Source: Candidatus Poribacteria bacterium
GTDB lineage: Bacteria; Poribacteria; WGA-4E; PCPOR2b
NCBI GenBank assembly: GCA_965208675.1
Contig: OZ242351.1
Location: forward strand, 1,312,001-1,376,000
Length of the DNA stretch: 64,000 nucleotides
Reading direction: 5' to 3'
The notes beneath the pieces are model-generated. The model ran no database searches and was not told where the DNA came from. It saw only the letters and a list, made by a program, of their open reading frames with translations. Position 1 is the stretch's first letter, and the number at the start of each line of letters is the position of its first letter. Below are positions 14,138 through 30,969 of the stretch, in pieces. The translations under genes were made by a program, and so were the position numbers.

Positions 14138-14185
14138 TGCGAAGTTCTTATCTTTAACAAGAAGGTGTTTGTTTTTGCAGGCTCG

Positions 14186-14458
14186 GTAGGAGCGATCTCC
14201 GAATCGCGACACACACTTCCTCAATCACAGTTCTTGTAGGTTGGGTAGAGCGGGTAGTATCAAAACCGTTCCGATAGCATTAACCGTCCAGAACACTAAA
14301 CATTGCACTTTGTCTATTACATGTAGCGAAACCCAACGATCAACTGAGCGAATAGCGAAGGCGATTGTCTTCAGCATTAAAACCTCCTGACAACCAAATG
14401 ATTACCTGCTCCCGTAATTACACCCCATCATTTAATCACACGAATCACACTTCAACCA
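14186..14458 (+). repeat. Mosaic REP-like repeat locus 1 (module A, split module B with 70-nt insert, 9-nt-period module C)
   Basis: GTAGGAGCGATCTCCGAATCGCGAC 14186-14210; GTAGGTTGGGTAGAGCGG 14236-14253; TAGCGAAACCCAAC 14324-14337; AATCA nonamer tract 14416-14458; all recur elsewhere in the window. Confidence 0.9.
14225..14377 (-). CDS. Putative 50-aa repeat-embedded micro-protein
   Basis: AGGAGG-5nt-ATG; MLKTIAFAIRSVDRWVSLHVIDKVQCLVFWTVNAIGTVLILPALPNLQEL*; N-terminus shared with 25435-25539. Confidence 0.35.
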   Translation of the reverse strand: MLKTIAFAIRSVDRWVSLHVIDKVQCLVFWTVNAIGTVLILPALPNLQEL

Positions 14459-14478
14459 GTCTCATTACCATAATCTCA

Positions 14479-15387
14479 TCAATCAATATACTCATAATCC
14501 CACGTTTGCGTCCAATTCGGAAGGTAACCTTCGGTCTCCTCAAACCCGTAGGACCTCGCAATTTGGCGGGAATGCACGTGCGGCCACGCCTGTCCGCCGA
14601 TTAATCGAAATTCGTCTCCCTTGCCGGATAGCCAATAGAACATATGCGCAATATATCTGGATAACTGATGCCCTCCGTAATAAGCTGTCTGAAAGTCGAA
14701 GTCGGGCTCAACAATCCAATCCCGTGTCGGCGGTACGGTTCGCCAGTAATTATATTTCAGCATATGGCGCACGCCCTCTATTGTAGATTCGCCCTTGCGG
14801 TGCAAAATACTTTGATGATGGACGATAAGTGATCCCGCCGGTGCGGCGGTTGCAATCCCTTTGTCCCCCGCATGCCACGGCTGAGGACGCAGATGTGACT
14901 CCGGCACAATCCCGGTAGGTCCCAATTCCACGGGCGTGTCCTGAGGATAATAAAACACTTCGACAAAGTTGACTTCCGGCCCAAATATGCAGTCGTGGTC
15001 TTGATGCCAATTCTGAGGCGGTCCCGGACATTGGGCGCGGTGATGGCTAACTAGTATCGGCAAGCCGATGTGCCGCCCCAGTAGCGACCGCAATACACCC
15101 GATAATTGCGGATTGAGTAACGCATGTTCAATAAACCAATCCTCAAGCAGAAGCGTGCTATTCGTGGCTTTACGAATTCGCTCCAAATCTTCAGTTGTCA
15201 TCCCTTCCGGAATGTAACTCGGATTAGCCGGCAGCCTACCTTCCAAATATTCAATCGCCCGCAGATTGATTTCATCGGGCACCACACTCTCCAAAATCAG
15301 ATACCCACTGCGGCAAAATTCGAGCACCTGTGAATCCGTTAGTGTCGGTTCACAGTCAAACGTCCTATTCTCTTTATCGTATTTCAT
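14479..15387 (-). CDS. PhyH-family Fe(II)/2OG dioxygenase
   Basis: F...GYLIL, WHQD, GPTGIVPESH, ILHR; GAGGGG RBS. Confidence 0.88.
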   Translation of the reverse strand: MKYDKENRTFDCEPTLTDSQVLEFCRSGYLILESVVPDEINLRAIEYLEGRLPANPSYIPEGMTTEDLERIRKATNSTLLLEDWFIEHALLNPQLSGVLRSLLGRHIGLPILVSHHRAQCPGPPQNWHQDHDCIFGPEVNFVEVFYYPQDTPVELGPTGIVPESHLRPQPWHAGDKGIATAAPAGSLIVHHQSILHRKGESTIEGVRHMLKYNYWRTVPPTRDWIVEPDFDFQTAYYGGHQLSRYIAHMFYWLSGKGDEFRLIGGQAWPHVHSRQIARSYGFEETEGYLPNWTQTWDYEYID

Positions 15388-15515
15388 TTGTGTTCCCCTC
15401 CATGGTTGTAAAGCATTTGCGGTAAATAACTAACGTTAATGATGCAGGCCGCTATCAAAATTAAGTCTCATTCACACCGCCGCGTAATAATACAAAGAAT
15501 TTCAACATCCGTTTC

Positions 15516-17129
15516 TCATAAGCGGAATTCCCGCAAATAACGCAACTGGAATTCCAACTCATTGCTCCGTTTTCGAACGCCAATCTGATGCGCTTCATTC
15601 CGCGTGATTGCATACTGGTAAACGATGTCCAACTGCCATGATCTCAGCGGTTCGTAGACTAGCCGAAATCCCGCGCCGTCTCGGCGTTCAACCACCCCGG
15701 ACGGAAAAGGAATCGATTCAGAATCCTCGCTGCGAAACCGGTCCGCAACGCCCGCCTCGCCCTGACGCTCGAATTCGTAGAAAACGCTAATGAATGTATC
15801 GGCGTTGATTAGGTATCCTCCCTCCAAATAGAAGGTATCCGCATCTGTGCCGATGCGATGACCGATGAAAGATCCGAAATGTGTGAACTGATTTTCTTGC
15901 ACGAGGTGCGTATACGCCCAACGATTCACGCGGGCGTACTCGACGCGAACGCTCAGTTTTTTTGATGTGAGCAAACCGTTGCATTCCAGTCCCGCTAACC
16001 ACGCAACTGCGTTTGGGTCGTTGGTATCCGCGTACTGAAAATCGTCAATTAACCACTCGCCGTACAATCGCGCCCCATCAATTGGGCGAATCGCCCCTTC
16101 CAACAGAAACATAACATTATCGTCGGAATCGGAGTTGTATTGGCTCGCGTAATACGGCAGAATCGGATTCAGGTACTGCCATTCAACATCTCTTGCATTA
16201 CCGCCGTACAGGATAAACTCGGAAATACCAACTTCAATTCGGTCGTTCACCTGCCAATCCAGCCGGTGCCCCGCAAGATACCGATTCGCAAGGTAACGCC
16301 GCGTTGGACCGTCCTGATCATGCCACATCTGATCCAACTGCGCCGTGAACGCCGTGCCTTTTACCCGCCCAAACTGTCCCGTTAACAGGATGAGGTCAAA
16401 CGGCGGTGAGTTGTCAGAAATTCCAACCGCCCCGCGAAATCCCGTACCCCAAAAGATTTGGTCCCGCCCAATTTTTACATCAATTTGAGAGACCGGAAAT
16501 CGTAAGTAGACTCGTTTGAAGTCCGCAGTATAACCGCTGTGCCACGACTTTATGCGTCTGGAAGTCGATTTCGATTCAATAGGATATTTTTCTGCAAACT
16601 TCCCAACCTCGAATTCTTGATACAGCGTAATTCGCCTGCCTACGTCATAATGGAAAGCCCCTTCGTACGCGGGCGAAATCCGCGAATTCGTTCTTGGCGT
16701 GCGCAACTGTACTGCCCCGCGCATACGCAGTTGATGCCCGGTTTTCTGCTTGGATAGGATGCCAAGTTCCCGCGCAAACTCTCGCTTTAATTTATCAAGC
16801 AGATGAACGTGGATTAGCGCCGGATTCACACGACAATCGGCAATTCGTTCGTCCGCGCGGCCAATCACTTCCGCAACCTCCCAGCGCGTGCGGGGTCGCG
16901 TGTGCCGATGAAAACCGCCCGTTACGCCATCGGTTTCCAACTTCTCTAGTGCAGAATCTACCCAACCGTCAAAATGAAGCGTTGTATTTGGAATGGCGTT
17001 AGTAGATTTTGGTGCGAAGAAGGCGCTGACGCCAATAAAAACAAGAAAGCCAACAAACGGACGCGCTCCCGCGCCGAAAAGCCGTTTTTGGAGTGTGGAG
17101 CGTGGGAGTGAATATAGAAGCCGTTTCAT
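15516..17129 (-). CDS. Capsule assembly Wzi-family outer-membrane beta-barrel protein
   Basis: Signal-like N-terminus; IGRDQIFWG.G..G...ISDN.PP, AGHRLD and LYGEWLIDD motifs; terminal beta-strand. Confidence 0.8.
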   Translation of the reverse strand: MKRLLYSLPRSTLQKRLFGAGARPFVGFLVFIGVSAFFAPKSTNAIPNTTLHFDGWVDSALEKLETDGVTGGFHRHTRPRTRWEVAEVIGRADERIADCRVNPALIHVHLLDKLKREFARELGILSKQKTGHQLRMRGAVQLRTPRTNSRISPAYEGAFHYDVGRRITLYQEFEVGKFAEKYPIESKSTSRRIKSWHSGYTADFKRVYLRFPVSQIDVKIGRDQIFWGTGFRGAVGISDNSPPFDLILLTGQFGRVKGTAFTAQLDQMWHDQDGPTRRYLANRYLAGHRLDWQVNDRIEVGISEFILYGGNARDVEWQYLNPILPYYASQYNSDSDDNVMFLLEGAIRPIDGARLYGEWLIDDFQYADTNDPNAVAWLAGLECNGLLTSKKLSVRVEYARVNRWAYTHLVQENQFTHFGSFIGHRIGTDADTFYLEGGYLINADTFISVFYEFERQGEAGVADRFRSEDSESIPFPSGVVERRDGAGFRLVYEPLRSWQLDIVYQYAITRNEAHQIGVRKRSNELEFQLRYLREFRL

Positions 17130-17234
17130 CGCATATCAGCTTAATCGAATTTCGGACAAAAGTCAAACACGATTACCACCCGGTTTCCGCCGCTCAAGCC
17201 TACCCGCCAGGTCTCGCACCTTGCGCACCCAACT

Positions 17235-19616
17235 TTAGTTGTCTTCCGCGAGTTTTGGGTTATTGAGTTTGATTGTCGTGTATCGGTCCTCCCCCTCTAC
17301 AATCTGGATAAACTGATTCGACGGAACATTGTGAAATATCTGTGTCTTGCCAGTAGTTGGCCAAAATATCTCTAAACGCTCAATGTTCGATGCTTTTCCT
17401 AAGCCGATGGCTTGCCGTAACGGATTCGCACCAAAAGTGCCGCCGCTGTTAACATGCTTGTAGATAGAGCGGCGATCCCCGTTTTCGACGACGTTTGCAC
17501 AGATGCGCGCACCTATTGCCGATCGGTTCGTTTGAACGCCGATGAGTTTTATCGTAATCCAATGATTATCGAAACCCGGATTTTCATACAACACGTTATT
17601 GTATGCGTCGCCCGGGAGTGCACCGCCCATCTGCTCAAAGACTTCCTGATCGCCGTCGTTGTCAAGGTCAGCGAAGACCGCCCCGTGCCCTTTCTGCACG
17701 TGGCTGAACCCGCCCGAAACACTCACGTCTACGAACCGATTCCCGCCCTGATTCCGGCACATCACGTTCGGCATTATATTCTCATAGTCCGGGTATCCGG
17801 TGCCAAGATAAAAATCCAGGTAGCCGTCGTTGTCCAAATCCCCGAAGTTAGACCCCATCGGCGCCGTGGGGCGAATCAAGTTATATTGCCGTGCGACTTC
17901 ATCAAATCCCCCGACGCCGTTCCCCCGGTAAAGACACGCAAATTCAGTTTCCACAGGTATATCAAGCCAACTCGCCGCAAGGTGTTCGATGTTGGCGGAA
18001 TATGCCGACACATACAAATCAAGTCTCCCGTCATTGTCAAAGTCCCAAAACCACGCAGGAAAGCTGACCTCGGGTAGGTCAACCTTCAGTTTTCGCGCGA
18101 CATTCGTAAATGTGCCGTTCCTATTGTTGTGATATAGTCGATTCCCGCCTTTATAATTGGATATGTACAAATCTAGCCAACCATCGCCATCGTAGTCTCC
18201 CCAGATAACAGATTTCGAGAACCGATAATTCCGTACGCCCGCCTTTGCAGCCACATCGGTAAATGTCCCGTCGCCGTTGTTGCGAAACAGTTGGCACGGC
18301 GCACGCAGCGCTTTGGAAGATTCGTTGCCAATGTACAAATCGAGATAACCGTCATTGTCGTAGTCGCCCCAAGACGCTGTCCCGCTGGGATAATGCGCCG
18401 TCCCCAGACCCGCTTCGAAAGTGACATCCGTGAATGTGCCATCCCCGTTATTGCGCAGTAAGGAGTTCGGGTGTTGTCCTTCGTTCTCAATCCATGCGCC
18501 GCGCAGCACCAGGATATCAGTGTCTCCATCGTTGTCATAGTCCGCTTGAACCATGTTCAACCCGCCGTATAGTCCAATCAGCCCCGTTTCCATTGTCCGT
18601 TCCGTGAACGTCCCGTCCTGGTTGTTTCCGAAAAAGCGAAGCTGCCCGTCGGTATCCCAGGTCGATGTCACAATATCAAGGTAGTCATCATTGTCAAAAT
18701 CGTCGATAATCGCGCCGCCTGACAAATCGAACGTATCCAGCCCAAGTCGCGGCGCAACATTCGCAAAGCGTGGAATTTCTTCCTCCGATTCAAACGCTTT
18801 CCGCGGAATAAGATAAGACTCGGGCACCCGCTCGGGATAGCCCCCGATAGTCATATACGCAATGTTAATCAACCATTGGGCGCCCAGATGAAGTGACGCC
18901 TGTTGCGGTGTTCGTTGGAGCACCTCCCCGAAAAATGCAATCGCTTTTAGAGAAGATTCTTGCTGCGTATGAATTCCGCCGCCTCGTAGTGGTAAAATAC
19001 AGCTCTCCGGTTTGTTGCGTAGGCAGCAATTCTCTGTTTCGCCGCGCCGCATGTAAGCCACGCCAAGGCGATAGTGAGTATGATTTAATACCTCCACCGG
19101 AACCGCATCCTGTTGTGTCCGTGTGAGGTGAAGTGCGCGCTCAAGATAGTCAATTCCTTCGAGTTCATGCCCCAAGTGGAGTAATTCGTGTCCCAATTGC
19201 ATATAAGCCATCCATTTCGTCCGATCGGATGTTCCGGTCGGAAACTCGGCAATCTGCTTACGAAGCGTGCGCGCCTTTGCATCTCCTAGGAAAGAGTTTT
19301 CGTCCGGCGTTTCATCTGCAATCTGTTGCAACAATCTCAGCATCCGTTGGTGGCCTGGCGATGATGTAAAGGAAGATTTCTCAGGAGGCTCTGATACCTC
19401 CGCCCTCAAAGCCGCCGATGCTGTACCATTTTCGCTAGAGGAGCCCTCACCTGCCGCAGGCGAACTTCCCATGCCAACACCCGCCGTCCAGAGGACAGTT
19501 AGCGCTCCCAAAACCACTCGACAAGATAAGAATGCCGTTGGCCGTAATCGATCAGATTTATCCAACACGCCGCGATGTGGAGATGTTTCAATGTTGCGGA
19601 ACTTGAATTTCGCCAT
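17235..19616 (-). CDS. CRTAC1/ASPIC-UnbV family protein with TPR-like N-terminus and FG-GAP repeats
   Basis: Repeated D(Y/F)DNDGxLDL and NNGDGTF; C-terminal NRSAIGA...GLG...I.WP. Confidence 0.92.
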   Translation of the reverse strand: MAKFKFRNIETSPHRGVLDKSDRLRPTAFLSCRVVLGALTVLWTAGVGMGSSPAAGEGSSSENGTASAALRAEVSEPPEKSSFTSSPGHQRMLRLLQQIADETPDENSFLGDAKARTLRKQIAEFPTGTSDRTKWMAYMQLGHELLHLGHELEGIDYLERALHLTRTQQDAVPVEVLNHTHYRLGVAYMRRGETENCCLRNKPESCILPLRGGGIHTQQESSLKAIAFFGEVLQRTPQQASLHLGAQWLINIAYMTIGGYPERVPESYLIPRKAFESEEEIPRFANVAPRLGLDTFDLSGGAIIDDFDNDDYLDIVTSTWDTDGQLRFFGNNQDGTFTERTMETGLIGLYGGLNMVQADYDNDGDTDILVLRGAWIENEGQHPNSLLRNNGDGTFTDVTFEAGLGTAHYPSGTASWGDYDNDGYLDLYIGNESSKALRAPCQLFRNNGDGTFTDVAAKAGVRNYRFSKSVIWGDYDGDGWLDLYISNYKGGNRLYHNNRNGTFTNVARKLKVDLPEVSFPAWFWDFDNDGRLDLYVSAYSANIEHLAASWLDIPVETEFACLYRGNGVGGFDEVARQYNLIRPTAPMGSNFGDLDNDGYLDFYLGTGYPDYENIMPNVMCRNQGGNRFVDVSVSGGFSHVQKGHGAVFADLDNDGDQEVFEQMGGALPGDAYNNVLYENPGFDNHWITIKLIGVQTNRSAIGARICANVVENGDRRSIYKHVNSGGTFGANPLRQAIGLGKASNIERLEIFWPTTGKTQIFHNVPSNQFIQIVEGEDRYTTIKLNNPKLAEDN

Positions 19617-19841
19617 AATTTTCTTTAAGTGCAGGTTACTTGAGCCTTCGTTTAAGGTGATATTATATGCGGAAAGCCTATTATTTTCAATATAATTAAA
19701 CGCTGGGATTCATAAATCCTCTGTAATCTCGACAATTGCCGCCCAATTGACGGCGGCTTCCGCCGAATCACGAAAACCAAGGACGCATTAACAAACACTC
19801 GCTTGGCGTAATGCCTTTCCGATGCGTGTTATTATGTTTTT

Positions 19842-19871
19842 TTGCATTGTTACCAGGTATATAGGTATAAT
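19842..19871 (+). promoter_or_regulatory. Putative sigma70 promoter upstream of the PhyH gene and leuS
   Basis: TTGCAT-18nt-TATAAT. Confidence 0.4.
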
Positions 19872-20071
19872 AGTATTATGAACTTGGCGCGAGTCCATCG
19901 AAAATGACGCATTCGCCAGCAAGCAGGCGATATGCGCTAGCATTCATAGCATACCTGCCGCACGCCACGCTAACTCGAAGAAACGAATCTCAGCATCACG
20001 TGATATTATTTAAGATGGTTGGAGAAGAGAAAACGTAGAATTGGAGATAACGTACATGCGAGGAAATCATT

Positions 20072-20127
20072 TTCCCGTCTTCGCGTCTTCTCGTTTTCTC
20101 CCTTTCTCCTTTTCCCGTCTTCTCCAT
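20072..20127 (+). repeat. Degenerate 8-nt tandem repeat (7 x TTC-N-C-N-N-Y)
   Basis: ttcccgtc ttcgcgtc ttctcgtt ttctccct ttctcctt ttcccgtc ttctccat. Confidence 0.75.
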
Positions 20128-20146
20128 CATAATGGGGGTAGTGCAA

Positions 20147-20905
20147 ATGTCTACGAGTACGGACCTTAATGCCGCAATCGATCACCTTACGGTCTACGGC
20201 TACTGTATATTGGAAAATCGCATTCCCGAGGACATGGCGCTGAGCATGGCTGAGCGATTCCTCGAATTGCACGCAGACCCGCAGTGGAATTCCTTCAAGA
20301 TAGGTGATGAATACTATCAGACATTGTTTGGGATGCTTAACCTTGACGACCGTGTGTGGAACTGTTCCGGTCATCCCGACGCGGTCGCAATCGCAGAGCA
20401 TTTTCTCGGGCCAAACTGTCGAATCCCCGATGCGTGTTCCAAGCCAACTTGGCCCGGTGCGCCGCACGGTCCTCTGCATGTTGATTCCGCCAGCACTTTC
20501 GCTAGGGTACCAAGTGTGCCGTGGATGATCAACGGTATGTGGATGTTGACGGAATTCACCGTAGAAAACGGCGCAACAGGCGTGGTACCGCTGAGCCACC
20601 GCACGCGCTTGCACGGTCCGCCGCCGGACATTACGCCAGACAGTCCGCTAATCAAGACCATCACCGGACGTCCCGGTACGGTGATGTTGTGGCATGCCGG
20701 GCTATTCCACATGTCGCGCGCCAACACCACATCCGACGAAATTCGTGTCGGGCTGAATTCAGGTTACTGCCCACGCTGGTTCAACAACTGGGCTGAAGGA
20801 TGCCATCAGCCGGTTTGGCCCGAAACATACGAGCGAATGCCGCCCGAAATGAGGCGTCTGTGTCCAGGCCGTCTCGGACGCAACCGCGCAGATCTTTACG
20901 AATAA
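20147..20905 (+). CDS. PhyH-family Fe(II)/2OG dioxygenase
   Basis: GYCILEN, LHVD, FTVENGAT.VVP.SH, LFH...N.T...R; start at 20147 follows a GGGGG RBS. Confidence 0.9.
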   Translation: MSTSTDLNAAIDHLTVYGYCILENRIPEDMALSMAERFLELHADPQWNSFKIGDEYYQTLFGMLNLDDRVWNCSGHPDAVAIAEHFLGPNCRIPDACSKPTWPGAPHGPLHVDSASTFARVPSVPWMINGMWMLTEFTVENGATGVVPLSHRTRLHGPPPDITPDSPLIKTITGRPGTVMLWHAGLFHMSRANTTSDEIRVGLNSGYCPRWFNNWAEGCHQPVWPETYERMPPEMRRLCPGRLGRNRADLYE

Positions 20906-20919
20906 CAACCCATGCACCC

Positions 20920-20989
20920 GTAGGAGCGATCTCCGAATCGCGGCTTCGCCAACCTACATTATTCCGGTTGAATTCGGAGATAATTCTGC
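20920..20989 (+). repeat. REP-like locus 2 (module A plus inverted degenerate A, with a B fragment between)
   Basis: GTAGGAGCGATCTCCGAATCGCGGC 20920-20944; CCAACCTACA 20949-20958; inverted GCAGAATTATCTCCGAAT about 20972-20989. Confidence 0.8.
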
Positions 20990-21033
20990 GCCGAAACACC
21001 TAAGATTTATGAGACGAATTAAGGAGCGCCTAA

Positions 21034-23586
21034 ATGCCAAAACACATCTACAATCCCGCCGCCATTGAACCGAAATGGCAGAGCATATGGGAGAAACGTG
21101 AGACCTTTCGCATACCCAACGACCCCGAGGCATGGAAAGGAAAACCAAAATTTTACATACTGGGCATGTTCCCGTACGTTTCAGGCTCCGGCTTGCATGT
21201 CGGCCATCCCAAGGGGTATCTTGCGACCGACGTCATCGCCAACATGCGGCGAATGCAGGGCTACAATGTCCTCCATCCAATGGGTTGGGACGCGTTCGGG
21301 CTCCCCGCGGAGCGCGCCGCTGAACGCGGAAACGTGCACCCCGCGACGATCACCGGCAAAATGGTGGATATGTTCCGCCGGCAAATCAAGCGGCTCGGAT
21401 TCTCATATGACTGGAATAGGGAAATTAACACCTCCGCACCCGAATATTACAGGTGGACGCAGTGGATTTTCCTCAAACTCTACGAGAAAGGTTTGGCATA
21501 CCTTGAAGATGTGCCCGTTAATTGGTGTCCTGCGCTCGGCACCGTCCTCGCCAACGAAGAAGTAAAAGACGGGAAATACATTGAGACCGGCGACCCGATC
21601 GAGCGGCGTCACATGCGCCAATGGATGCTGAAAATCACAGCGTATGCCGACCGGTTGCTTGGAGACCTGAATCAACTCGATTGGCCCGAGGGTCTCAAGG
21701 AGATGCAGCGCAATTGGATCGGGAAATCGGAGGGGGCAGACATACAATTCTCCATCAAGGAAACCAATCTCAATTTTACCGTTTTTACAACCAGACCCGA
21801 TACACTTTTCGGCGCCACATACTGCGTCTTTGCTCCTGAACACCCGCTCGTTTCGCAGATTGCGTCCGATGACCGGAAGGACGCGGTCAAGGCGTACATC
21901 GCAGAATCCAAGAACAAATCAGACCTTCAGCGAACCGATCTCGCGACAGAGAAGACCGGGGTTTTCACCGGCGCCTACGCAATCAACCCCGGCAACAATG
22001 CCGCCATTCCAATTTGGATCGCCGACTATGTGCTGATTTCCTACGGTACTGGAGCAATCATGGCTGTGCCGGGGCACGATGAACGCGATCACGAATTTGC
22101 TGCCGCGTTTAACATCCCCATAGTCGAAGTCATCAGCGGCGGCGAGAAGCCGATTGAGGTTGAACCATTCACCGACGACGGTATCTGTGTGAACAGCGGT
22201 TTCCTCAACGGCTTGCGTGCAACTGACGCAAAAGAAAAGATGATTGCATGGCTTGAACAACAAAACAAGGGCAAACGACAGGTACAGTATCGCCTACGCG
22301 ACTGGCTGTTTTCCCGCCAGCGTTATTGGGGCGAGCCGTTCCCAATTGTGCACCTCGAAGACGGAACCATTACTACCATTCCTGACGGCGGGCTTCCCGT
22401 GGAACTTCCATCAATTGATGAATACCGCCCCACACCCGACGGCAAACCTCCCCTCGCCCGCGCGGGGGATGACTGGCTTTTGGTGTCCCTGCCCGATGGG
22501 CGCATTGGGGTGCGTGAAACCAATACCATGCCGCAATGGGCAGGTTCCTGTTGGTACTATTTGCGGTATATCGATTCGCAGAACCACGACGCCCCGTGGT
22601 CCGCCGAAGCCGAACGGTATTGGCTGCCGGTAGACCTATATATCGGCGGCGCAGAGCACGCTGTATTGCATCTACTCTACGCACGGTTCTGGCACAAAGT
22701 GCTGTTCGACTGCGGACTTGTGTCCACGAACGAACCGTTTCAAAACCTCTTCAATCAGGGGACAATCCTTGCAGAATCGTATCAAGACGATAACGGCAAA
22801 TACTACTATCCGCACGACGTAGAGAAAAAAGGCGATAAATGGTTCATTAAGGCATCCAATAGACCTGTAAGCACGCAACTCGAAAAGATGAGCAAGTCCA
22901 AATTCAACGTCGTGAACCCAGACGATGTCATTGACAAATACGGTGCGGATGCGGTTCGGCTCTACGAACTTTTCATCGGTCCGTTGAGCGTCAGTACGCC
23001 GTGGCAGACCGCCGGCGTAGAAGGCGTTTACCGCTTCCTCAACCGCGTCTGGAGGCTGGTCATTGACCAACACACGGGGGAATTGACTGAGAAATTAACG
23101 GACGCTCCCGGCGACAGCGATGAAGCATTGTGGAAAGCATTGCACCAGACCATCAAAGTCGTCACGGAGGACACAGAATCCATAGACAAATTAAACACGG
23201 CTATTAGCCAGATGATGGTGTTTGTCAACACCGCGACGCAATCCCGTACGTTGCCAAAAGAGTCGATAAGCACCTTTCTGCGGTTACTTTTTCCGTACGC
23301 GCCGCACATCGCCGAAGAACTGTGGGAACGTCTAGGCAACACTGATCTGGTCGCGAAGGCGTCCTGGCCAACGCATGATGCGAAAGCGCTCATCCGGGAA
23401 GAGGTAACAATCGTCGTCCAAGTCAACGGCAAGCTGCGCAGCCGAATTCAACTGCCCGTGGATGCGGGCAACCAAGAAGCTGAAGCTGCTGCGCTTGCGG
23501 ACAAGCGAATCCAAAGCCACGTTGCCGGGAAAACCGTACGAAAAGTGATTGTGGTACCGAACCGGCTGATAAACATCGTCGTGTAA
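21034..23586 (+). CDS. leuS: Leucine--tRNA ligase
   Basis: MFPY.SG.GLHVGH (HIGH), TTRPDT editing motif, [14 protein letters not shown]. Confidence 0.99.
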
Positions 23587-23666
23587 CCCGCAGAAAATGC
23601 AGAACGTAGTTCGAATTTCGTAAGGGTTCAACACTCGTCAGAGAACTAAGGAGGAAATCGAAAGTA

Positions 23667-25337
23667 ATGTCTGAAACCCAAAATGAAGGCGTACTTATCA
23701 CTCCCATCGGCGGACTGGGAGAGTTCGGATTGAACATGATGACCTATGAGTACGCCGACGACCTCATCATCATCGATGCTGGTATAATGTTTCCCGAGGC
23801 GGACACCCCGGGCGTAGATTTGGTTGTTCCCGATATAACATACTTAATCGAGAATCGGCGCAAAATCCGCGGAATCGTAGTCACACACGCGCACGAAGAT
23901 CATACCGGTGCACTCGCGTTTCTGCTTCGCCAAATAAACATCCCGGTCTACGGTACTGAACTCACGCTAGCGCTCGCCCAACGTAGATTACAAGAGTACA
24001 ATGTTTTAAAGGATGCCCAACTGAGCGTCATCAATCCAGATCGCCAATTGACACTTGGATGCTTCACACTTGAATTCATCCATGTGGCGCACAGCATTCC
24101 CGGTACAGTATCAGTCGCCCTTCATTCGCCCGTCGGTACAATCGTACATACCGCCGACTTTAAGTTTGACCTCACTCCTGTCGACAATCGCCGCACAGAA
24201 ATACACAAACTTGCCATCCTTGGTGAAAAAGGTGTGCTGATGCTAGTATCGGATAGTACCAATGCTGATCGCCCCGGATTCACGCCCTCTGAACGCGCGA
24301 TTTATTCAGATATGGATGGAATTTTTCAGAGCGTTGACCGGCGACTTTTCCTTTCTACATTTTCATCTAGCTTACACCGTATGCAGCAATTCATCGATCT
24401 AGCTGTCCAACATCGCCGCCTGATAGCCGTCACCGGACGTTCCATGGTAAACAACATCCGAATCGCTTCAGAGTTAGGTTACTTAACCGTGCCCCCAGAC
24501 CTCCTCATCGATCCCAGAGAGGTAAAGCAGTTTCGACCCCACGAGGTCGTGGTCTTGAGCACCGGCAGTCAAGGCGAACCGCGTTCCGCAATGGCGTTGA
24601 TGGCGATGAACAATCACGCATTTCTGAATATTGAACCCCAGGACACAGTGGTACTGTCCGCCCGAATCATCCCTGGCAATGAGCGGTCGGTCGGGCACAT
24701 GATAAACCACCTGCTTCGGCGCGGCGCACGAGTCCTCCACGAGAAAAACGCCGATGTCCATGTGTCCGGACATGGCGCACGGGAAGATCTCAAGTTGATG
24801 ATTAACCTCGTGCGTCCCAAATATTTTGTGCCGATGCACGGTGAATACAGCCATCTTGTTCATCATGCCGAAATCGCTGAGGAGATTGGAATTCCTTACG
24901 AAAATATCACAGTGGCTGAAAACGGCGATCAGCTACTGCTAAACCCCGACTTCTGCGGCATCCAGGCGCGCGTTCAATCGGGACGCGTTTTCGTTGATGG
25001 CAAGCTGGAAATGGGTGTTGAGGACATGGTGTTGCATGATCGGCAGGCGCTCTCGCAGGACGGCATGGTAATCCCGATTGTTGTGCTCGATCGCAACACC
25101 GGCAAAATCGCCGCGGGTCCCGACATGGTTTCACGCGGCTTTGTTTACATGGACGATTCAAAACCGCTCATAGACGAAGCCAAAGAGATTGTCATCAATT
25201 CCATAGACGGACTTAGCGAAGAGGTCAAAAGCGAAACAGAGACCGTGCAAGAGGAAATCCGTATAGTCCTCCGCCGTTTCTTCTCAAAACGAACAAAACG
25301 CCGCCCCATGGTGCTCCCCGTAGTCATGCGCGTCTAA
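23667..25337 (+). CDS. rnj: Ribonuclease J
   Basis: GGLGEFG.NM, THAHEDH, TGSQGEP, HVSGH, PMHGEY. Confidence 0.97.
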   Translation: MSETQNEGVLITPIGGLGEFGLNMMTYEYADDLIIIDAGIMFPEADTPGVDLVVPDITYLIENRRKIRGIVVTHAHEDHTGALAFLLRQINIPVYGTELTLALAQRRLQEYNVLKDAQLSVINPDRQLTLGCFTLEFIHVAHSIPGTVSVALHSPVGTIVHTADFKFDLTPVDNRRTEIHKLAILGEKGVLMLVSDSTNADRPGFTPSERAIYSDMDGIFQSVDRRLFLSTFSSSLHRMQQFIDLAVQHRRLIAVTGRSMVNNIRIASELGYLTVPPDLLIDPREVKQFRPHEVVVLSTGSQGEPRSAMALMAMNNHAFLNIEPQDTVVLSARIIPGNERSVGHMINHLLRRGARVLHEKNADVHVSGHGAREDLKLMINLVRPKYFVPMHGEYSHLVHHAEIAEEIGIPYENITVAENGDQLLLNPDFCGIQARVQSGRVFVDGKLEMGVEDMVLHDRQALSQDGMVIPIVVLDRNTGKIAAGPDMVSRGFVYMDDSKPLIDEAKEIVINSIDGLSEEVKSETETVQEEIRIVLRRFFSKRTKRRPMVLPVVMRV

Positions 25338-25356
25338 TGCCAAGGAATCAACTCCG

Positions 25357-25644
25357 GCAGAAACTATCTCCCAACCGCGGTATTTACACGATATTTCTTG
25401 TAGGTTGGGTAGAGCGGATAACCCCAGTCCGTAACTATTGCAAATTCACACTCGGAATATCCAAAGGACGCCCTTTACAAAATAGATGTAGCGGAACCCA
25501 ACGATCAACTGAGCGGATAGCGAAGGCGATAGCCTTCAAGTTCATTCCTCCAGCGAATCCTAACGCTTTTTTACTTTCAAAACCGAATAACATCGTACTC
25601 CCACAATCACAGCCCATCATTTAATCACACAAATCACAGTTCAG
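25357..25644 (+). repeat. Mosaic REP-like repeat locus 3 (degenerate A, split B with 71-nt insert, extra B right arm, C)
   Basis: B-left 25400-25417; B-right TAGCGGAACCCAAC 25489-25502; CAGCGAATCCTAACGCTTTT 25551-25570; C tract 25605-25644. Confidence 0.9.
25435..25539 (-). CDS. Putative 34-aa repeat-embedded micro-protein
   Basis: GGAGG-7nt-TTG; MKAIAFAIRSVDRWVPLHLFCKGRPLDIPSVNLQ*. Confidence 0.3.
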   Translation of the reverse strand: MKAIAFAIRSVDRWVPLHLFCKGRPLDIPSVNLQ

Positions 25645-25650
25645 GAAATT

Positions 25651-26439
25651 ATGGGATTCCCAGTGAAAGCGCTGATTAGCACAATCTGCTTTATCACGGC
25701 AATCACCGCCCACGCGTCTAACGATTTGGTTGTCGGTGTATGGCTTTTCAACGAAGGCAAAGGTTGGTACACCTACAACGAAGCGGTCATGCGTTCATCA
25801 GTTTTAGGCGATCGGTCATGGGTAGACGGCAGGTTTGGAAAATGCTTGGACTTTAGCACAAACCAGCTCTCAAGGATCAGGGATTTGCCTCAACAAATGC
25901 CAGCAGAGGAAATAACGGTTACGGCTTGGGCAAAGATTCTCGACTTTCGTAACGCCCGACTATTCGACTCGACGCCAGACTTCGACAATCCAAATTGGAC
26001 TATCGGCGTGTTATTGCCTTGGGACAACAGTGTACGGTGGCGGTTCGGATCGCCGTACATCGAATTGACCGCCGAATTTGATACAGATGTCAAAGACATC
26101 TGGCGGCACTGGGCGTTTGTTCATAGCAGGCGCGACAACCTAATGGCTATCTATCTCGACGGTGAATTGCTTGCATCACTGAATACTTCGACAAGATTTA
26201 TTCCGCCTGAGGATGCTTCCAGTCTTGTAATTGGCGGGCCGGATAGGTTTCACGGGCTTATCGACGAGTTCGCGATATTCAACATCCCGCTCGCTGAACG
26301 CGATATCCGGTCCGTCATGGCGCGCGGGCTAGCAACCGTACTCACCGTCGCTCCAAATTACAAGCTCGCAACGTCATGGGGCAATATCAAAAGCGGACTG
26401 ATCTCACTTAACAATATAATACGAGACACACGCTGGTAA
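25651..26439 (+). CDS. Secreted LamG-like jellyroll protein with C-terminal KLATSWGNIK motif
   Basis: Signal peptide, LV..WLFNEGKG, W.DGRFGK.L.F, WRHWA, IYLDG, F.GLIDEFAIFN. Confidence 0.9.
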   Translation: MGFPVKALISTICFITAITAHASNDLVVGVWLFNEGKGWYTYNEAVMRSSVLGDRSWVDGRFGKCLDFSTNQLSRIRDLPQQMPAEEITVTAWAKILDFRNARLFDSTPDFDNPNWTIGVLLPWDNSVRWRFGSPYIELTAEFDTDVKDIWRHWAFVHSRRDNLMAIYLDGELLASLNTSTRFIPPEDASSLVIGGPDRFHGLIDEFAIFNIPLAERDIRSVMARGLATVLTVAPNYKLATSWGNIKSGLISLNNIIRDTRW

Positions 26440-26466
26440 TTTAAATTTTTCCCGGGTCGGCAACAA

Positions 26467-26538
26467 CGATCTCCGAATCGCGGCACATACTCCCCTAATC
26501 ATCGCCCATCATTCAATCACACTAATCACGGTACAGGC
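26467..26538 (+). repeat. REP-like locus 4 (module A core plus module C)
   Basis: CGATCTCCGAATCGCGGC 26467-26484, TACTCCC linker, then AATCA nonamer tract. Confidence 0.85.
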
Positions 26539-26632
26539 TACCGCACAATGCGCCGTGGTTTAGGCAAAATGGTATAACCACTCGCCACAGGCCGCTTTTT
26601 ACTGTTTATTTTGCAAACCATTGTAAATTTTC

Positions 26633-26662
26633 TTGACAAGCAAAATAACTATTCCGTATAAT
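26633..26662 (+). promoter_or_regulatory. Consensus sigma70 promoter
   Basis: TTGACA-18nt-TATAAT with AT-rich upstream sequence. Confidence 0.75.
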
Positions 26663-26711
26663 TTTACAAGATTCCGAACTGTTTGATTTAAAATTCTAAA
26701 ATGTTATCTAC

Positions 26712-26755
26712 AGCGAGGCGAGGGCGCTGCACAACTTCCACCCTCGCTTGTTTTG
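26712..26755 (+). terminator. Putative intrinsic terminator/attenuator hairpin
   Basis: GGCGAGGG...CCCTCGCT stem followed by TGTTTTGT. Confidence 0.5.
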
Positions 26756-27352
26756 TGTGAGCGTAAATCGGTATATTGCGTCCAACGAATCTGGATTGGC
26801 AACTAGCACCGCAGCATTTAATCAGAACTTAATTTCGGGCGTGCAACCTGATGAATGCGAAGTGTCCGAAAAATGAAACCTCGATTTAGGGCACAAAAGG
26901 GCACTTTTCGGCATATCGAGACCGTCGCATTGCGCACGGTGCCGGACACGCCGCGGATCCAGTGTCTGAGCGGGCCCTCAAGCATTCTTCAGATGCGCAA
27001 ATCAGTTGACATTTTGCGTATAGAGGGCAGTGCCCCCGGGGACACAATCTCGCTAGTGGGGACACCTTTCCCGACCCCAAAATTTTGCTATTTTCCGTAA
27101 ACGGTGAATCGCCCTAATCATGAAAACTGACGACTATAAATCCGAATGTTCCTGATGATAGCTGGGTAGCAGTTCCGTTGTCGTTCTCCTCCCGCGAGTG
27201 CAGCGATTAAGAATCAGTATCAGATTGCGCTCCTCCCTCCTTCTCAAAATCACATCAAAACAAACCTTCCAATTCAAAAAAGTGCGAATAAACCCCATGA
27301 ATTTTGCCTCTATTAGAGCATAGAGATACTTCTCTGTTTTAATGGAATAAAA

Positions 27353-27901
27353 ATGGGAATTTCCGACGAAATTTTAGTGCGGCACGCACAACGTGGTGTT
27401 GAACATGCCTTTAGGCAGCTAGTCCAGCGGTACAACGAACGAATCTTTAATGTCTGCTTTCGGATTGTTGGAAACGAGCAGGACGCCGAGGAAGCCGCGA
27501 TGGACGCATTCTTGGCATGTTACCAAGGCCTTGCTAGCTTTGAAGGCCGCTCCCGTTTTTCGACCTGGCTCTATCAGATTGCCCGGCGCTGCTCCTACAA
27601 AAAGATTCGTAGACGTCCACCGGTAAGTGAACCGATTGACGAACTTGAGATTTCTGAGGACGGCATGGCGATGCAGCCGGACAGAAATCTTCAGGAGCAC
27701 GAGATTCGAGAAAGGCTTGAGGAAGCGGTGGAAGCACTCCCCGATCACTTGAAAGAAGTCGTAATCTTCTACTTCTTAGAGGGGCTGTCTTACCATGAGA
27801 TTTCGGAAATTCTTGAGCGCCCAATCGGAACCGTTGCTTCGCGGATTAACGCCGCACGTCATCTGTTGCAGCGAAAACTTCAACATTTTTTTGAGGAGTG
27901 A
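27353..27901 (+). CDS. ECF sigma factor (SigW/RpoE-like)
   Basis: AF..LV.RY, DAEEAA.D.F, FSTWLYQIA (region 2); GLSY.EISEIL..PIGTV.SRI..AR (region 4). Confidence 0.95.
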   Translation: MGISDEILVRHAQRGVEHAFRQLVQRYNERIFNVCFRIVGNEQDAEEAAMDAFLACYQGLASFEGRSRFSTWLYQIARRCSYKKIRRRPPVSEPIDELEISEDGMAMQPDRNLQEHEIRERLEEAVEALPDHLKEVVIFYFLEGLSYHEISEILERPIGTVASRINAARHLLQRKLQHFFEE

Positions 27902-27905
27902 TACC

Positions 27906-28199
27906 ATGGCAGCGTTAGACCAAATACTCCGGCGTTTACCCCGAAAAACGCCCGGTGCCGGTTTTGTGGATAGGCTTGTTACGCAGATTCGCGGCAATGA
28001 CCTCCCGCCGCCCGCACCATCTATAACCCATCCAAATCTTTTTTTACCTAAACCCGACTGTATCGAATCAGCCCGATTGGATATGCAGGAAGGTGAAGAA
28101 TTCATGCCGCCCGAGTCCAATTTTTTTCCGCCGCCCGTAATGCAGAGAGCGTCATCTCCCGACAGCTCCCGGTTCACTAAGTTTAGTCATCGGTCTTAA
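27906..28199 (+). CDS. Small soluble Pro-rich protein, candidate anti-sigma factor
   Basis: GAGGAG RBS within the end of the sigma gene; LRRLP..TP..GFVDRLV helix resembles anti-sigma N-termini; no TM helix. Confidence 0.6.
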   Translation: MAALDQILRRLPRKTPGAGFVDRLVTQIRGNDLPPPAPSITHPNLFLPKPDCIESARLDMQEGEEFMPPESNFFPPPVMQRASSPDSSRFTKFSHRS

Positions 28200-28231
28200 A
28201 CCGTTCCAGTTCAAACAAGGAGAAACATACC

Positions 28232-30388
28232 ATGATTTTGACGGATGTACCGATAGTCCGCTGTGACGGAATATTCGACATAATTTTCTATGATATCAAA
28301 GGAGAACTCTTTCCTGAAAACCACCGTTTGGCTTGTCAGGTTGATGTAACCTTTCGCAGTCTGATGAAGGCGTTGGACAAAGTGACATTCGCTTTGCATC
28401 CAACGCTAGAGGTTACTGAGGTGAAGGCGGCGGGCGAGGCACTGGCTTTCAATCGGGATACCAAAGGTATCGACCAACACGGGGACGGAAGCGTCCTTAA
28501 CATTTATCTAAAACGGCCATTGCTGCATGACGGTGAACTCACAATTACAATCAACTACCACGGTGAATTCATCGCTGGCGTGGAATCACGCTACGACGGA
28601 TACATCGGCGAGGAAGGGGTCTTCATCAGCCCGCACGCCGGATGGTATCCATACTGTGTTTATGCCGCTGTGCCGAACTATTTCCCTGATGTCCCCTACC
28701 TCTTGGAGATGCGCGCCCCATCGGGGTGGATGCTGTTTTTATATCCAGGCGATCCGGAGGTGACAGAACAGAATGGCAAGGTGACTTACAGTTGGGATTC
28801 CCGCCAGCCGCACCGGCGGCCGAGGGCAAATTGGGGAATAACAGTCATCGGCGGGAAGTATCATAAAATTGAGCGAAACATTGACAGCCACAAACTTACG
28901 TTTTTCAGCCTCGATAAAGACAGTACATCCGTTAATAAAATCCTCAACCCGTTGAATGAATGGTTAGAATGGACGGATAAAGTTGGCGGCACGGCTTCTG
29001 TGCCGCGCCACATCCAACTGGGAGAAACGGTGCACTTTTTTCAACCCAACCACGCAATGCCATACATAAAATTTTTTTCCCGGCACCTGATAGAGAACTA
29101 CCCGCGAAAATGGTTGACGATGCAATGGTTTGCGAGGGAAGAGATTCTGCGGCATTGGGGAGCATTATCCGGCACCGATTTGGGAGGCCTCTGGATGCTC
29201 GGGAACTATATCCTACTCCTGTTTCAGGCGAGTCGAGAGGATACGCCGGAAGGCTGGTTGGCAGCGGACTTGGAAAAACGCTCGCGTATGTATTTGTGGT
29301 GGCGAATTAGGAATCCATGGCTCGGACACAGCGAGCATTTGTTTGGCACACGAGATTATTGGATATTGTGGATGTGGCATCAAATCATCGGCGATGATTC
29401 GTTTTATCGCTCCCTCGCTCGATTGAGTGCCGGACCTCTGCCACAAGACCACCCCTTCACAATGAAAGATTTCTATCAATTGACCAGCGACGATTCAGGT
29501 ATTCCGTTCGAATGGTTTTGGGAGCAGTGGGTCGAAGGGGTCGGTGCAATGCAGTTTTGGTTCGAGAAAACAGCCGTCAAGGCGGACGGCGACGGCTATT
29601 CTGTAGAAGTATGGCTGGATCAGACAGGAGACCTGTATCAGGCGCCGCTAGTAGTGCTGTTGCGAACCGAAACAGAGGAAATACGCCGAAGAATCTTTAT
29701 TCGAGAGCGGATGAATCACCTAGTGTTTCGATGCCGCGGGAAACCTTTGGAAATAGAAATCGATCCGGAGAGGAAGGTTTTCAAAGCCTCGACGGTGAAT
29801 AGGTGCAAACCCATCGACATCGGGTTTTCGTTTCCGTTTGGAGAGGATAGATGGTCAGAGGCGTTTCGCCACGGAAAACGGCTAGTGATTGCGCCATCAG
29901 AATTGAAATCTGTTGCCGAAGCATTGAAGCCCTATCTGGAAAAGCGAGCGCGCCATGCGAGCCAGATAGTTAGTGCCGACCCGAACTTCGATCGCAGCCA
30001 GCGGTTTAGGGTTCCTGTAGAAATCCTCACGCCTGACGAAGTCAATGCTGAAATGTTGAGGTCGCATAACCTTGTATTAGTTGGCAACCCGCAGAATAAT
30101 CCTCTCATTAAAGAATATGGGTTAGACTCGCTTAGTTTTGGCGCGGACCGAATCGCCGCAGGAGAAATCGTAATTCGCTGCACCGATCAAGCCTTAATCG
30201 TCCTTGGCGAACATCCGATGAACCCGGAACGATTCTGTTTGCACGTCACGGGTTTATCCAATGAAGCCATGCAAGAACCACCTGACTTCACAGAGATGCC
30301 AGGCGATTTCCTCATTTATCGAAATGGAAAAGCATTAAAGGTAGGATATCAGAATCCGTACCGGCTGAAGTGTAAGTTCCAACTATGA
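28232..30388 (+). CDS. M1 aminopeptidase-fold protein lacking the HExxH zinc motif
   Basis: M1-like N-domain (YDI.GEL.P, I.YHG, GWYP), IGDD.F..L and WFWEQWV blocks, EIDP; AREEILRHWG in place of AHE.AHQW.G; C-terminal NLVLVGNP..NPLI domain. Confidence 0.7.
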   Translation: MILTDVPIVRCDGIFDIIFYDIKGELFPENHRLACQVDVTFRSLMKALDKVTFALHPTLEVTEVKAAGEALAFNRDTKGIDQHGDGSVLNIYLKRPLLHDGELTITINYHGEFIAGVESRYDGYIGEEGVFISPHAGWYPYCVYAAVPNYFPDVPYLLEMRAPSGWMLFLYPGDPEVTEQNGKVTYSWDSRQPHRRPRANWGITVIGGKYHKIERNIDSHKLTFFSLDKDSTSVNKILNPLNEWLEWTDKVGGTASVPRHIQLGETVHFFQPNHAMPYIKFFSRHLIENYPRKWLTMQWFAREEILRHWGALSGTDLGGLWMLGNYILLLFQASREDTPEGWLAADLEKRSRMYLWWRIRNPWLGHSEHLFGTRDYWILWMWHQIIGDDSFYRSLARLSAGPLPQDHPFTMKDFYQLTSDDSGIPFEWFWEQWVEGVGAMQFWFEKTAVKADGDGYSVEVWLDQTGDLYQAPLVVLLRTETEEIRRRIFIRERMNHLVFRCRGKPLEIEIDPERKVFKASTVNRCKPIDIGFSFPFGEDRWSEAFRHGKRLVIAPSELKSVAEALKPYLEKRARHASQIVSADPNFDRSQRFRVPVEILTPDEVNAEMLRSHNLVLVGNPQNNPLIKEYGLDSLSFGADRIAAGEIVIRCTDQALIVLGEHPMNPERFCLHVTGLSNEAMQEPPDFTEMPGDFLIYRNGKALKVGYQNPYRLKCKFQL

Positions 30389-30522
30389 ACTTAGATTCTG
30401 AGTACGAAAGAATTAACGGATTTGCAATGCTGGGCTCTTGAAGGTTGCGGAGTTGGCTAGGACGGGAATGATTCTTGCGTCCGATTCTTATTCAACAGCT
30501 CTCCAGCGTGCATCGGATTAAT

Positions 30523-30969
30523 CCTCCCCCTTACTATCGGGGAGCAAGAGGGGCATTGACAAATCGTCGGGAACCAGAATTCCCTCTTACCAAAATCCAA
30601 CCCCAGAAGGAGCCATCTCCGTATCGCGACGCGTACTCCCTCAATCATAGCCCATCAGTTAATTACACGAATCACAGTCTTTGTAGGTTGGGTAGAGCGG
30701 GTTATACCAAAACCGTTCCGATTGCTTTGACGGTTCAGTACCAAAAACATTGCTCATTGCAAATTACGTGTAGCGAAACCCAACGCTTTTCTGACCTCTC
30801 GAGTTTTCAAAAGCGTTGGGCTTCGCTACCCACTACCAATGCTTGAACGCAATCAACTCACCATCCTCATGCGTCATAACTCACATATTTCATCAATCCC
30901 GCTTTACTCAACCTACAGGAATTTTAAATCATAGCCCATCATTCAATCATACAAATCACAGTTCAGACC
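30523..30969 (+). repeat. Mosaic REP-like repeat locus 5 (GC hairpin, A, C, inverted pair of split B modules, C)
   Basis: A 30606-30630; C 30643-30678; B 30683-30784; inverted B 30815-30916; C about 30927-30968. Confidence 0.92.

Follow-up and report, generated by a model that had tools for sequence, protein, structure and literature searches.

Split GTAG-tagged repeats with conserved arms and a length-constrained, freely drifting interior in the genome of a Candidatus Poribacteria bacterium

The stretch of DNA analysed here (hereafter the window; 64,000 nt, positions 1,312,001 to 1,376,000 of contig OZ242351.1, assembly GCA_965208675.1) belongs to the 4.89-Mb single-contig genome of a Candidatus Poribacteria bacterium, a sponge symbiont designated G000, which was compared with three congeners (G001, G002 and G003) and with further genomes of its order. 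The window contains four copies of a dispersed repeat, each consisting of a left arm, an interior (or insert) of about 70 nt, and a right arm that can pair with the left one through the heptamers GTTGGGT and ACCCAAC. A first-pass annotation of the window had described these four units, and a script check agreed with it on their positions, their strands and the length of their inserts (70, 71, 70 and 70 nt). The units, in window coordinates, are as follows:

14236-14337, plus strand: unit 1, 102 nt, with the left arm at 14236-14253, the interior at 14254-14323 (70 nt) and the right arm at 14324-14337
25400-25502, plus strand: unit 2, 103 nt, with a 71-nt interior
30683-30784, plus strand: unit 3, 102 nt, with a 70-nt interior of the same subfamily as that of unit 1
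30815-30916, minus strand: unit 4, 102 nt, with a 70-nt interior of a different subfamily; it forms a convergent doublet with unit 3

Relative to the arm consensus, units 1 and 3 carry no mismatch in either arm, unit 2 carries one in its right arm, and unit 4 carries two in the left and one in the right. The annotation was also right about the 18 differences in 70 sites between inserts 1 and 3, and about insert 4, which is not visibly related to them (53 and 52 differences out of 70 with inserts 1 and 3, respectively; unrelated by eye). In the family consensus the tetranucleotide GTAG precedes GTTGGGT, that is, it stands as an unpaired tag 5' of the stem-loop. Our reading of the sequence suggests a hairpin stem of about 12 bp, running from G5-C102 to C16-G91 and interrupted by an internal patch of non-Watson-Crick pairs.

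Across the whole genome, 249 left arms (at most two mismatches) were followed by a right arm, and the insert measured 68 to 72 nt in 130 of them (5, 20, 69, 27 and 9 left arms for 68, 69, 70, 71 and 72 nt, respectively). The remaining distances fell at 0-2 nt (n = 4), 32-33 nt (n = 3), 100-282 nt (n = 10) and 400 nt or more (n = 102). This sharp genome-wide peak at 68-72 nt means that the length constraint on the insert, which the annotation had proposed, is real. Under a looser criterion, in which only an 11-mer core (GTAG plus GTTGGGT) was required with at most one mismatch, the genome contained 472 sites. As many as 203 of these cores begin a unit of 100 to 104 nt (22, 52, 89, 33 and 7 units in order of increasing length, with the mode at 102 nt); about 24 begin an "empty" hairpin of 33-34 nt that has its arms and flanks in common with the long units; about 20 begin a form of 61-67 nt, which is mostly an empty hairpin with a 34-nt mini-repeat nested in its loop; and 126 have no right arm within 400 nt. 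The reversed pattern, used as a control, gave no match in any of the 31 genomes searched. The pattern of arms with an insert of about 70 nt is real and far beyond chance, and the family has two main states, namely a short hairpin of about 31-34 nt and a long unit of 100-104 nt. Measured against the size of roughly 20-40 bp by which a repetitive extragenic palindromic (REP) element is recognised, the short form fits while the long form, with its 203 copies, does not.

The conserved element extends somewhat beyond the arms, with about 7 nt upstream (AGYTYTT) and with GCTTTT downstream (98 of the 203 units), and a symmetric end of the type ...ACCCAAC-CTACAA is found in 8 of the 203. The units are predominantly intergenic, only nine of the 203 lying inside gene proxies, which cover 81% of the genome. 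They are dispersed over the whole chromosome, and some are in tandem arrays. One array (G000:C1 1190500-1192300) is made of four 346-nt periods, each of them containing a doublet in which two different 102-nt units converge across a 58-nt GCTTTT...AAAAGC spacer, and at G000:C1 1708600-1709600 there are three periods of about 220 nt, in each of which a truncated arm, the mini-repeat and a full unit follow in succession. The genome also contains a separate 24-nt hairpin family, GTAGGTTCGGTTTCCYAACCGAAC, whose head is similar to the arms studied here (for example at G000 678566, 2303899, 3112363, 3396253 and 3502845).

The rate at which each part of the unit changes was assessed on 14 orthologous pairs of units with aligned flanks from G000 and G002, the latter being syntenic and 88-94% identical. 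The changes were distributed as follows:

Arms: 13 of 448 positions changed (2.9%), 0 indel events
Interior: 138 of 978 positions changed (14.1%), 0 indel events
Flanks: 2675 of 20178 positions changed (13.3%), 83 indel events

At the ratio seen in the flanks, about 4.3 indels would be expected in the interiors, where none was observed (Poisson p about 0.014). In nine pairs chosen more strictly the picture was the same, with 5 of 288 positions changed in the arms (1.7%), 66 of 630 in the interior (10.5%) and 483 of 4239 in the flanks (11.4%). Within the genome, those arm columns that had not been used in selecting the units showed identities of 0.84, 0.94 and 0.97 where the paired interiors showed 0.69, 0.79 and 0.89. 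The annotation had spoken of a fast-evolving insert; by these comparisons, what it noticed is the conservation of the arms together with the avoidance of indels, and not an accelerated insert, since the insert drifts at the rate of its flanks and the arms are the conserved part.

The interiors themselves were compared with the rest of the genome by BLAST. For the 203 units, the matches inspected outside units were either units with degraded arms or the nested mini-repeat, and among these matches no interior was found outside arms. No relative at E < 1e-4 was detected for 58 of the 203 interiors. At a gapped identity of 0.65, a threshold above the maximum obtained with shuffled controls (0.634), the interiors chain into components of 116, 33 and 14 members, leaving 26 singletons. 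From their sequences, most interiors appear to form one diverged superfamily with dozens of subfamilies and not to be captured DNA, which had been one of the possibilities raised for them, along with a guide-like segment. The unit 3/4 doublet, which was the part of the window compared with phage and plasmid records, matched none of them.

No structure of the interior emerged either. The mean folding z-score over the 203 units was -0.20 for the unit strand and -0.03 for the opposite strand, that is, there was no excess stability; single units folded no better than shuffled sequences except for one unit strand (z -2.86); and complementary foldback pairs numbered 15.84 against 15.33 in shuffles, so that the spacer shows no hairpin capacity. 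When 77 non-redundant 102-mers were tested for covariation by mutual information with average product correction (APC), no Watson-Crick covariation was found in the interior and no series of pairs with a constant i+j. The one strong coupling was between columns 12 and 94, which read A/A or T/T in 64 of the 77 sequences; this is identity and not complementarity, and a hidden common fold was rejected on that ground. We infer that the coupling reflects two arm lineages within an extended stem, one with T12-A95 followed by G13.T94 and the other with A12.A95 followed by tandem G.A pairs, both continuing with G15-C92 and C16-G91. At gathering score, Rfam gave no match in the window, and matches around unit 1 were at chance level.

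A coding cassette, also suggested by the annotation, was considered as a peptide gene resembling those of ribosomally synthesized and post-translationally modified peptides (RiPPs), and was rejected because the interior varies in length by single nucleotides and changes at the rate of its flanks. Stop-free frames on the minus strand are weakly enriched (45, 47 and 38 of 130 against 24, 35 and 31 in shuffles). A motif resembling a ribosome-binding site (RBS) with an ATG on the minus strand beside unit 1 was set aside as well, its start lying within the 34-nt mini-repeat and not being conserved among copies of the latter. The units show no preferred orientation relative to their flanking genes (61 versus 59); with respect to the replication strands, the cumulative GC skew, whose minimum is near 3.2 Mb and whose maximum is near 4.75 Mb, was not clean, and no bias was seen in unit orientation. 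Public sequencing runs found to contain an 8-kb stretch were four of DNA type from one study, with no RNA run listed. Judged from its sequence, the interior is not read as coding, and it appears to carry no information of its own, drifting at background rate while its length is held within 1-2 nt.

The annotation had assigned the units to a REP-type family on account of the GTAG tag and the pairing arms, and relatives of G000 bear this out in that they carry a REP-associated tyrosine transposase (RAYT) bracketed by such units. In G001, an open reading frame (ORF) of 180 aa lies inside the densest cluster of units and scores 201.6 bits on the NCBIfam model NF047646 (REP_Tyr_transpos; cut-off 80). 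Orthologues with at least 72% identity, the G001 gene included, are present in G001, G003, G011, G012 and G018, which represent two genera, and in each of the five the gene has arms next to it. Convergent doublets of units such as that of units 3 and 4 also flank the RAYT in relatives. Two of the layouts are as follows:

G012: a 102-nt unit, a 24-nt spacer and an inverted 101-nt unit; the RAYT; a 32-nt empty hairpin, a 28-nt spacer and an inverted 99-nt unit
G003: a 104-nt unit 66 nt before the start codon; the RAYT; a perfect GTAG hairpin 14 nt past the stop codon

In G018 a long unit comes first after the stop codon, whereas G011 and G012 have an empty hairpin there, from which it follows that the short and long forms interchange at what is apparently one position. 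Among more distant homologues (35-48% identity), arms lay close to the gene in one of seven, and the homologue of G026, which was looked at in detail, had another repeat family beside it. In G001, two further fragments at G001:C1:3184721-3185031 (L228 and L229), about 1.7 kb from the intact gene, are 86% and 95% identical to it over residues 53-118 and 6-47, respectively, which suggests a broken second copy.

In agreement with the annotation, the window holds no RAYT, and the cognate gene was likewise not found in the whole genome. With the G001 protein as query, no orthologue was found in G000 or in G002, and the best tblastn match in G000 was about 25% identical. G000 has four Y1_Tnp matches, none of which is flanked by the arms studied here. 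Its two intact Y1 transposases are flanked by different hairpin families, of the GCCCCAGCGGGGC type at L001 (1462-1962, plus strand) and of the CTGTGGGAGGGAAATCC type at L002 (1363-1854, minus strand); NCBIfam makes L002 a RAYT (132 bits), while the score of L001 is that of an IS200 type (69.5 bits). The best 30 Y1 loci of the order were of IS200 type and uninformative.

The exact arm pattern occurs in 94 copies in G000, 41 in G001, 141 in G002 and 42 in G003. Further away, it is present in 1-3 copies in six of ten genomes of a sister genus and in 2-11 copies in all three genomes of a genus belonging to another family, while 24 of the 31 genomes carry a looser pattern (gap of 8-200 nt) in numbers ranging from dozens to above 100. 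For G029, from a different family of the order, a tally by hand of the 81 rows listed gave 16 elements of 31 nt, 60 of 98-105 nt (26 of them of 102 nt) and 5 of other lengths, with interiors unrelated to those of G000. Because G029 shows the same lengths, both the two-state design and a mode at 102 nt are conserved at the level of the order.

The strict pattern also matches metagenome-assembled genomes (MAGs) of Desulfobacterales and other Thermodesulfobacteriota, both arms being carried by one Desulfobacterales MAG (L022, L037, L048, L057, L067, L092 and L097) and by other Desulfobacterota MAGs (L044, L056, L084 and L091). There the arms form a palindromic element of about 128 nt with the arrangement A-8-B'-50-B-9-A', partly in tandem periods of about 195 nt, or they enclose a loop in which a reversed empty hairpin is nested. 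We rejected these elements as instances of the Poribacteria split unit, their architecture being different. With the arms present in another phylum, one may ask whether the REP/RAYT system was transferred horizontally.

Around the four units, the window contains the following smaller features:

14229-14235, plus strand: conserved 7-nt left flank of unit 1 (AGTTCTT; consensus AGYTYTT over 203 units)
14338-14371, plus strand: 34-nt mini-repeat adjoining the right arm of unit 1, with the motif GAGCG(G/A)ATAGCGAA at 14346-14359
25503-25536, plus strand: 34-nt mini-repeat adjoining unit 2, with the motif GAGCG(G/A)ATAGCGAA at 25511-25524
30643-30682, plus strand: 40-nt "AATCA...CACAGT" module directly left of the unit 3/4 doublet (repeat family D2)
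30785-30814, unstranded: 30-nt GCTTTT...AAAAGC spacer separating unit 3 from the convergent unit 4
30927-30966, plus strand: second copy of the 40-nt "AATCA...CACAGT" module, directly right of the doublet (repeat family D2)

The spacer of the doublet is spanned by an inverted repeat (I4; arms 30770-30790 and 30809-30829, 95% complementary), and the pairing of subfamilies seen in units 3 and 4 recurs at other loci of G000. The GAGCG(G/A)ATAGCGAA motif had been taken for an empty junction at loci 1 and 3; its actual place is 8 nt beyond the right arms of units 1 and 2, and it is the core of the separate 34-nt mini-repeat. The latter has 66, 116 and 175 copies in the genome at no more than 2, 4 and 6 mismatches, respectively, and is found elsewhere nested in the loops of empty hairpins, adjoining the ends of units, and nested in itself. 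It is a family of its own, being neither the 70-nt interior nor an explanation of it. Its habit of nesting in itself gives the mini-repeat beside units 1 and 2 a likeness to nested very small mobile repeats, of which the small dispersed repeats of Nostoc are a comparable class.

A second, mosaic set of intergenic modules, comprising GGTAGGAGCGATCTCCGAATCGCG... and AATCA-phased ...CCCATCATTTAATCACACAAATCACAGTTCAG modules (families D1, D2, D5 and D6), lies between genes at 14172-14227, 14392-14455, 25581-25644, 26446-26536, 30592-30682 and 30927-30966, and it occurs both with and without units placed between its parts. Repeats spaced by 150-340 nt at 17644-18701 on the minus strand (D4, D10 and D13) lie inside the gene for a 793-aa FG-GAP/ASPIC-UnbV protein and are the FG-GAP repeats of that protein.

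Comparison of the window with the orthologous region of G002 revealed turnover of the units. Unit 1 is present in both genomes, with 1 of 32 arm positions and 8 of 70 interior positions changed. Unit 2, together with its mini-repeat and the adjoining modules, is absent at the orthologous site in G002, and so is the whole of the unit 3/4 doublet, at whose site the 40-nt "AATCA...CACAGT" module is single in G002 and stands on both sides of the doublet in G000.

Taken together, we consider it probable that the units are a family of non-autonomous, GTAG-tagged repeats of the REP/REPIN type in Candidatus Poribacteria. The two arms are the halves of one hairpin, whose stem is closed by a loop of about 4 nt in the short form (31-34 nt in total) and whose halves stand about 70 nt apart in the long form (100-104 nt in total). 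The family would belong to one specific RAYT, with which it is arranged as a REPtron in related genomes, and G000 would have lost this RAYT while keeping about 200 units. As in other REP systems, the RAYT would spread or maintain the units by single-strand (HUH) chemistry, the conservation of the arms at resident loci may reflect selection or conversion, and the spacer would act as a ruler setting the distance between two half-sites. Of the options for the insert offered by the annotation, the ruler, a fixed-length spacer, is the sole survivor. Its interpretation as a whole stood in part: the REP family, the length constraint and the absence of a RAYT were upheld, while the fast insert, the captured, guide-like or coding cargo, and the empty junction did not survive.

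Several observations weigh against this explanation. The genomes richest in units, G000 (94) and G002 (141), are those without a cognate RAYT match, whereas the RAYT-bearing G001 and G003 have only 41 and 42, so that ongoing RAYT-driven spread is not established for G000. Neither of the two polymorphic sites in the window shows a clean insertion junction or a target duplication, and, because the 40-nt module is duplicated at the site of the doublet, recombination between repeats fits as well as transposition does. The roughly five-fold conservation of the arms at orthologous resident loci is not predicted for a purely selfish element, and a function at the level of the host, or one dependent on the RAYT, may be involved in it. 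The spacer, unlike that of the REPINs described, has neither foldback capacity nor excess stability. Finally, the explanation as a REP/REPIN family gives no cause for the length constraint, which it leaves unexplained.

One conceivable cause, which we hold to be quite doubtful, is that the 70-nt interior serves, whatever its sequence, as a molecular ruler on single-stranded DNA. The loop would then be allowed two sizes only, about 4 nt or about 70 nt, and none between them, the long state being possibly sized for the wrapping of one unit of single-stranded DNA-binding protein (SSB). SSB tetramers have a 65-nt binding mode. Wrapping by SSB would join the half-arms on the lagging-strand template, and the RAYT would see the GTAG hairpin only in a replication-dependent context. 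If true, such a ruler would explain the strict length, the freedom of sequence and structure, and the conservation over order-level divergence.

Other explanations were weighed against that of a RAYT-associated REP/REPIN family. One of them, unlikely in our judgement and partly compatible with the favoured one, is that the host retains the arms as a pair of half-sites to which a nucleoid protein, gyrase or a domesticated RAYT binds, with the spacer setting the distance and the whole serving a chromosomal function, so that the units would be more than parasitic repeats. The conservation of arms amid drift at orthologous loci, the conservation of unit length across an order, and the persistence of many units in genomes that yielded no cognate RAYT are all in keeping with such a role; however, units are gained and lost between congeners that are 88-94% identical, copy number varies three-fold within the genus, and no candidate protein was identified. 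The length distribution also lacks a second peak at a distance of one helical turn from 102 nt, so that helical phasing does not by itself account for the length. A miniature inverted-repeat transposable element (MITE), mobilised by a DDE-type transposase for which the arms serve as terminal inverted repeats, would account for ends that are imperfect inverted repeats, fully symmetric in the 8 units noted above, and for the palindromic element of 128 nt that the same arms form in a Desulfobacterales MAG; the proximity to RAYT genes would then arise from clustering of repeats. We regard this as very unlikely, given that no arm pair in G000 encloses a transposase-like gene (the enclosed ORFs, inspected by eye with no family scan, were ordinary or spurious), that no target-site duplication is seen at the two polymorphic sites, and that the family bears hallmarks of REPs, namely the GTAG tag, a short hairpin form and, in two genera, a single RAYT clade that is closely bracketed.

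The arrangement of conserved ends around a variable middle of fixed length is also how guide scaffolds look, and the units might accordingly be genes for small structured or guide-like RNAs, in which the conserved ends would form a scaffold stem and the interior would provide target specificity. The possible tandem G.A pairs of the extended arm stem, as we read the sequence, and the one unit strand that folds better than its shuffles lend themselves to this view, yet it is highly improbable in the face of mean folding scores of about zero on both strands, the lack of Watson-Crick covariation in the interior and of any Rfam family match, the absence of an orientation preference with respect to genes, and the drift of orthologous interiors at the flank rate. 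Nor do the interiors match anything else in the genome, and for the doublet of units 3 and 4 there is no matching phage or plasmid record. Lastly, the attC sites of integrons have the core consensus GTTRRRY/RYYYAAC, the site having RYYYAAC as its 5' end and GTTRRRY as its 3' end. The heptamers GTTGGGT and ACCCAAC fit this consensus, the short inverted conserved cores around a variable centre resemble attC, and some units stand in tandem arrays, as might be expected of recombination sites or mini-cassettes. The order of the cores, GTTGGGT...ACCCAAC on both strands, is however reversed relative to attC, the best integron-integrase match in the genome (TIGR02249) reaches 41.2 bits where the cut-off is 265, and the units lie scattered along the entire chromosome; an integron origin is close to refuted.

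Among known systems, the REPINs as they appear in the text of Bertels & Rainey 2011 (PMC3116915), with two invariant inverted ends, a less-conserved spacer and 71 bp between the GI 16-mers, share with the Poribacteria units the inverted conserved ends, a characteristic spacer length, a high copy number, an extragenic position, a flanked RAYT and convergent doublets. Compared with that description, the Poribacteria family differs in that (i) each of its ends is half a palindrome, an arm alone not being self-complementary, whereas a REPIN end is a whole REP, (ii) its spacer shows neither hairpin capacity nor compensatory changes, (iii) a short spacerless form exists alongside the long one, with no intermediate, and (iv) the cognate RAYT is missing from G000 and divergence of the interiors has produced dozens of subfamilies, at a length that has stayed fixed over an order. 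With the GTAG-tagged REP superfamily, as presented in the text of Di Nocera, De Gregorio & Rocco 2013 (PMC3733652), it shares the GTAG tag, a cognate RAYT or REPtron, and REPtrons that can be lost by deletion, as reported there for strains of E. coli. The longest loops named in that text, in contrast, are of up to 27 bp, and a 70-nt unstructured loop of a single hairpin is not described in it; Poribacteria are not mentioned in the same text, although its supplementary files may list more families. In searches of the literature linking Poribacteria with REPs, RAYT, repeats or transposases, mostly judged by title and without supplements, no description of the split unit was found. The system is of a known kind, a REP/REPIN family with its own RAYT, and what is new in it is a spacer that is long, unstructured and of measured length, together with the two-state design.

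For annotation, the family accounts for about 200 intergenic blocks in G000 and for comparable numbers in related Poribacteria; such blocks might otherwise be taken for genes of small RNAs or peptides, or for CRISPR-like cargo. REPs and REPINs are among the commonest bacterial repeats, and the role of their spacer is unclear. The Poribacteria family separates two constraints that have been proposed for REPIN spacers, the length being kept within 1-2 nt over an order while hairpin capacity is absent and the sequence is free to drift.

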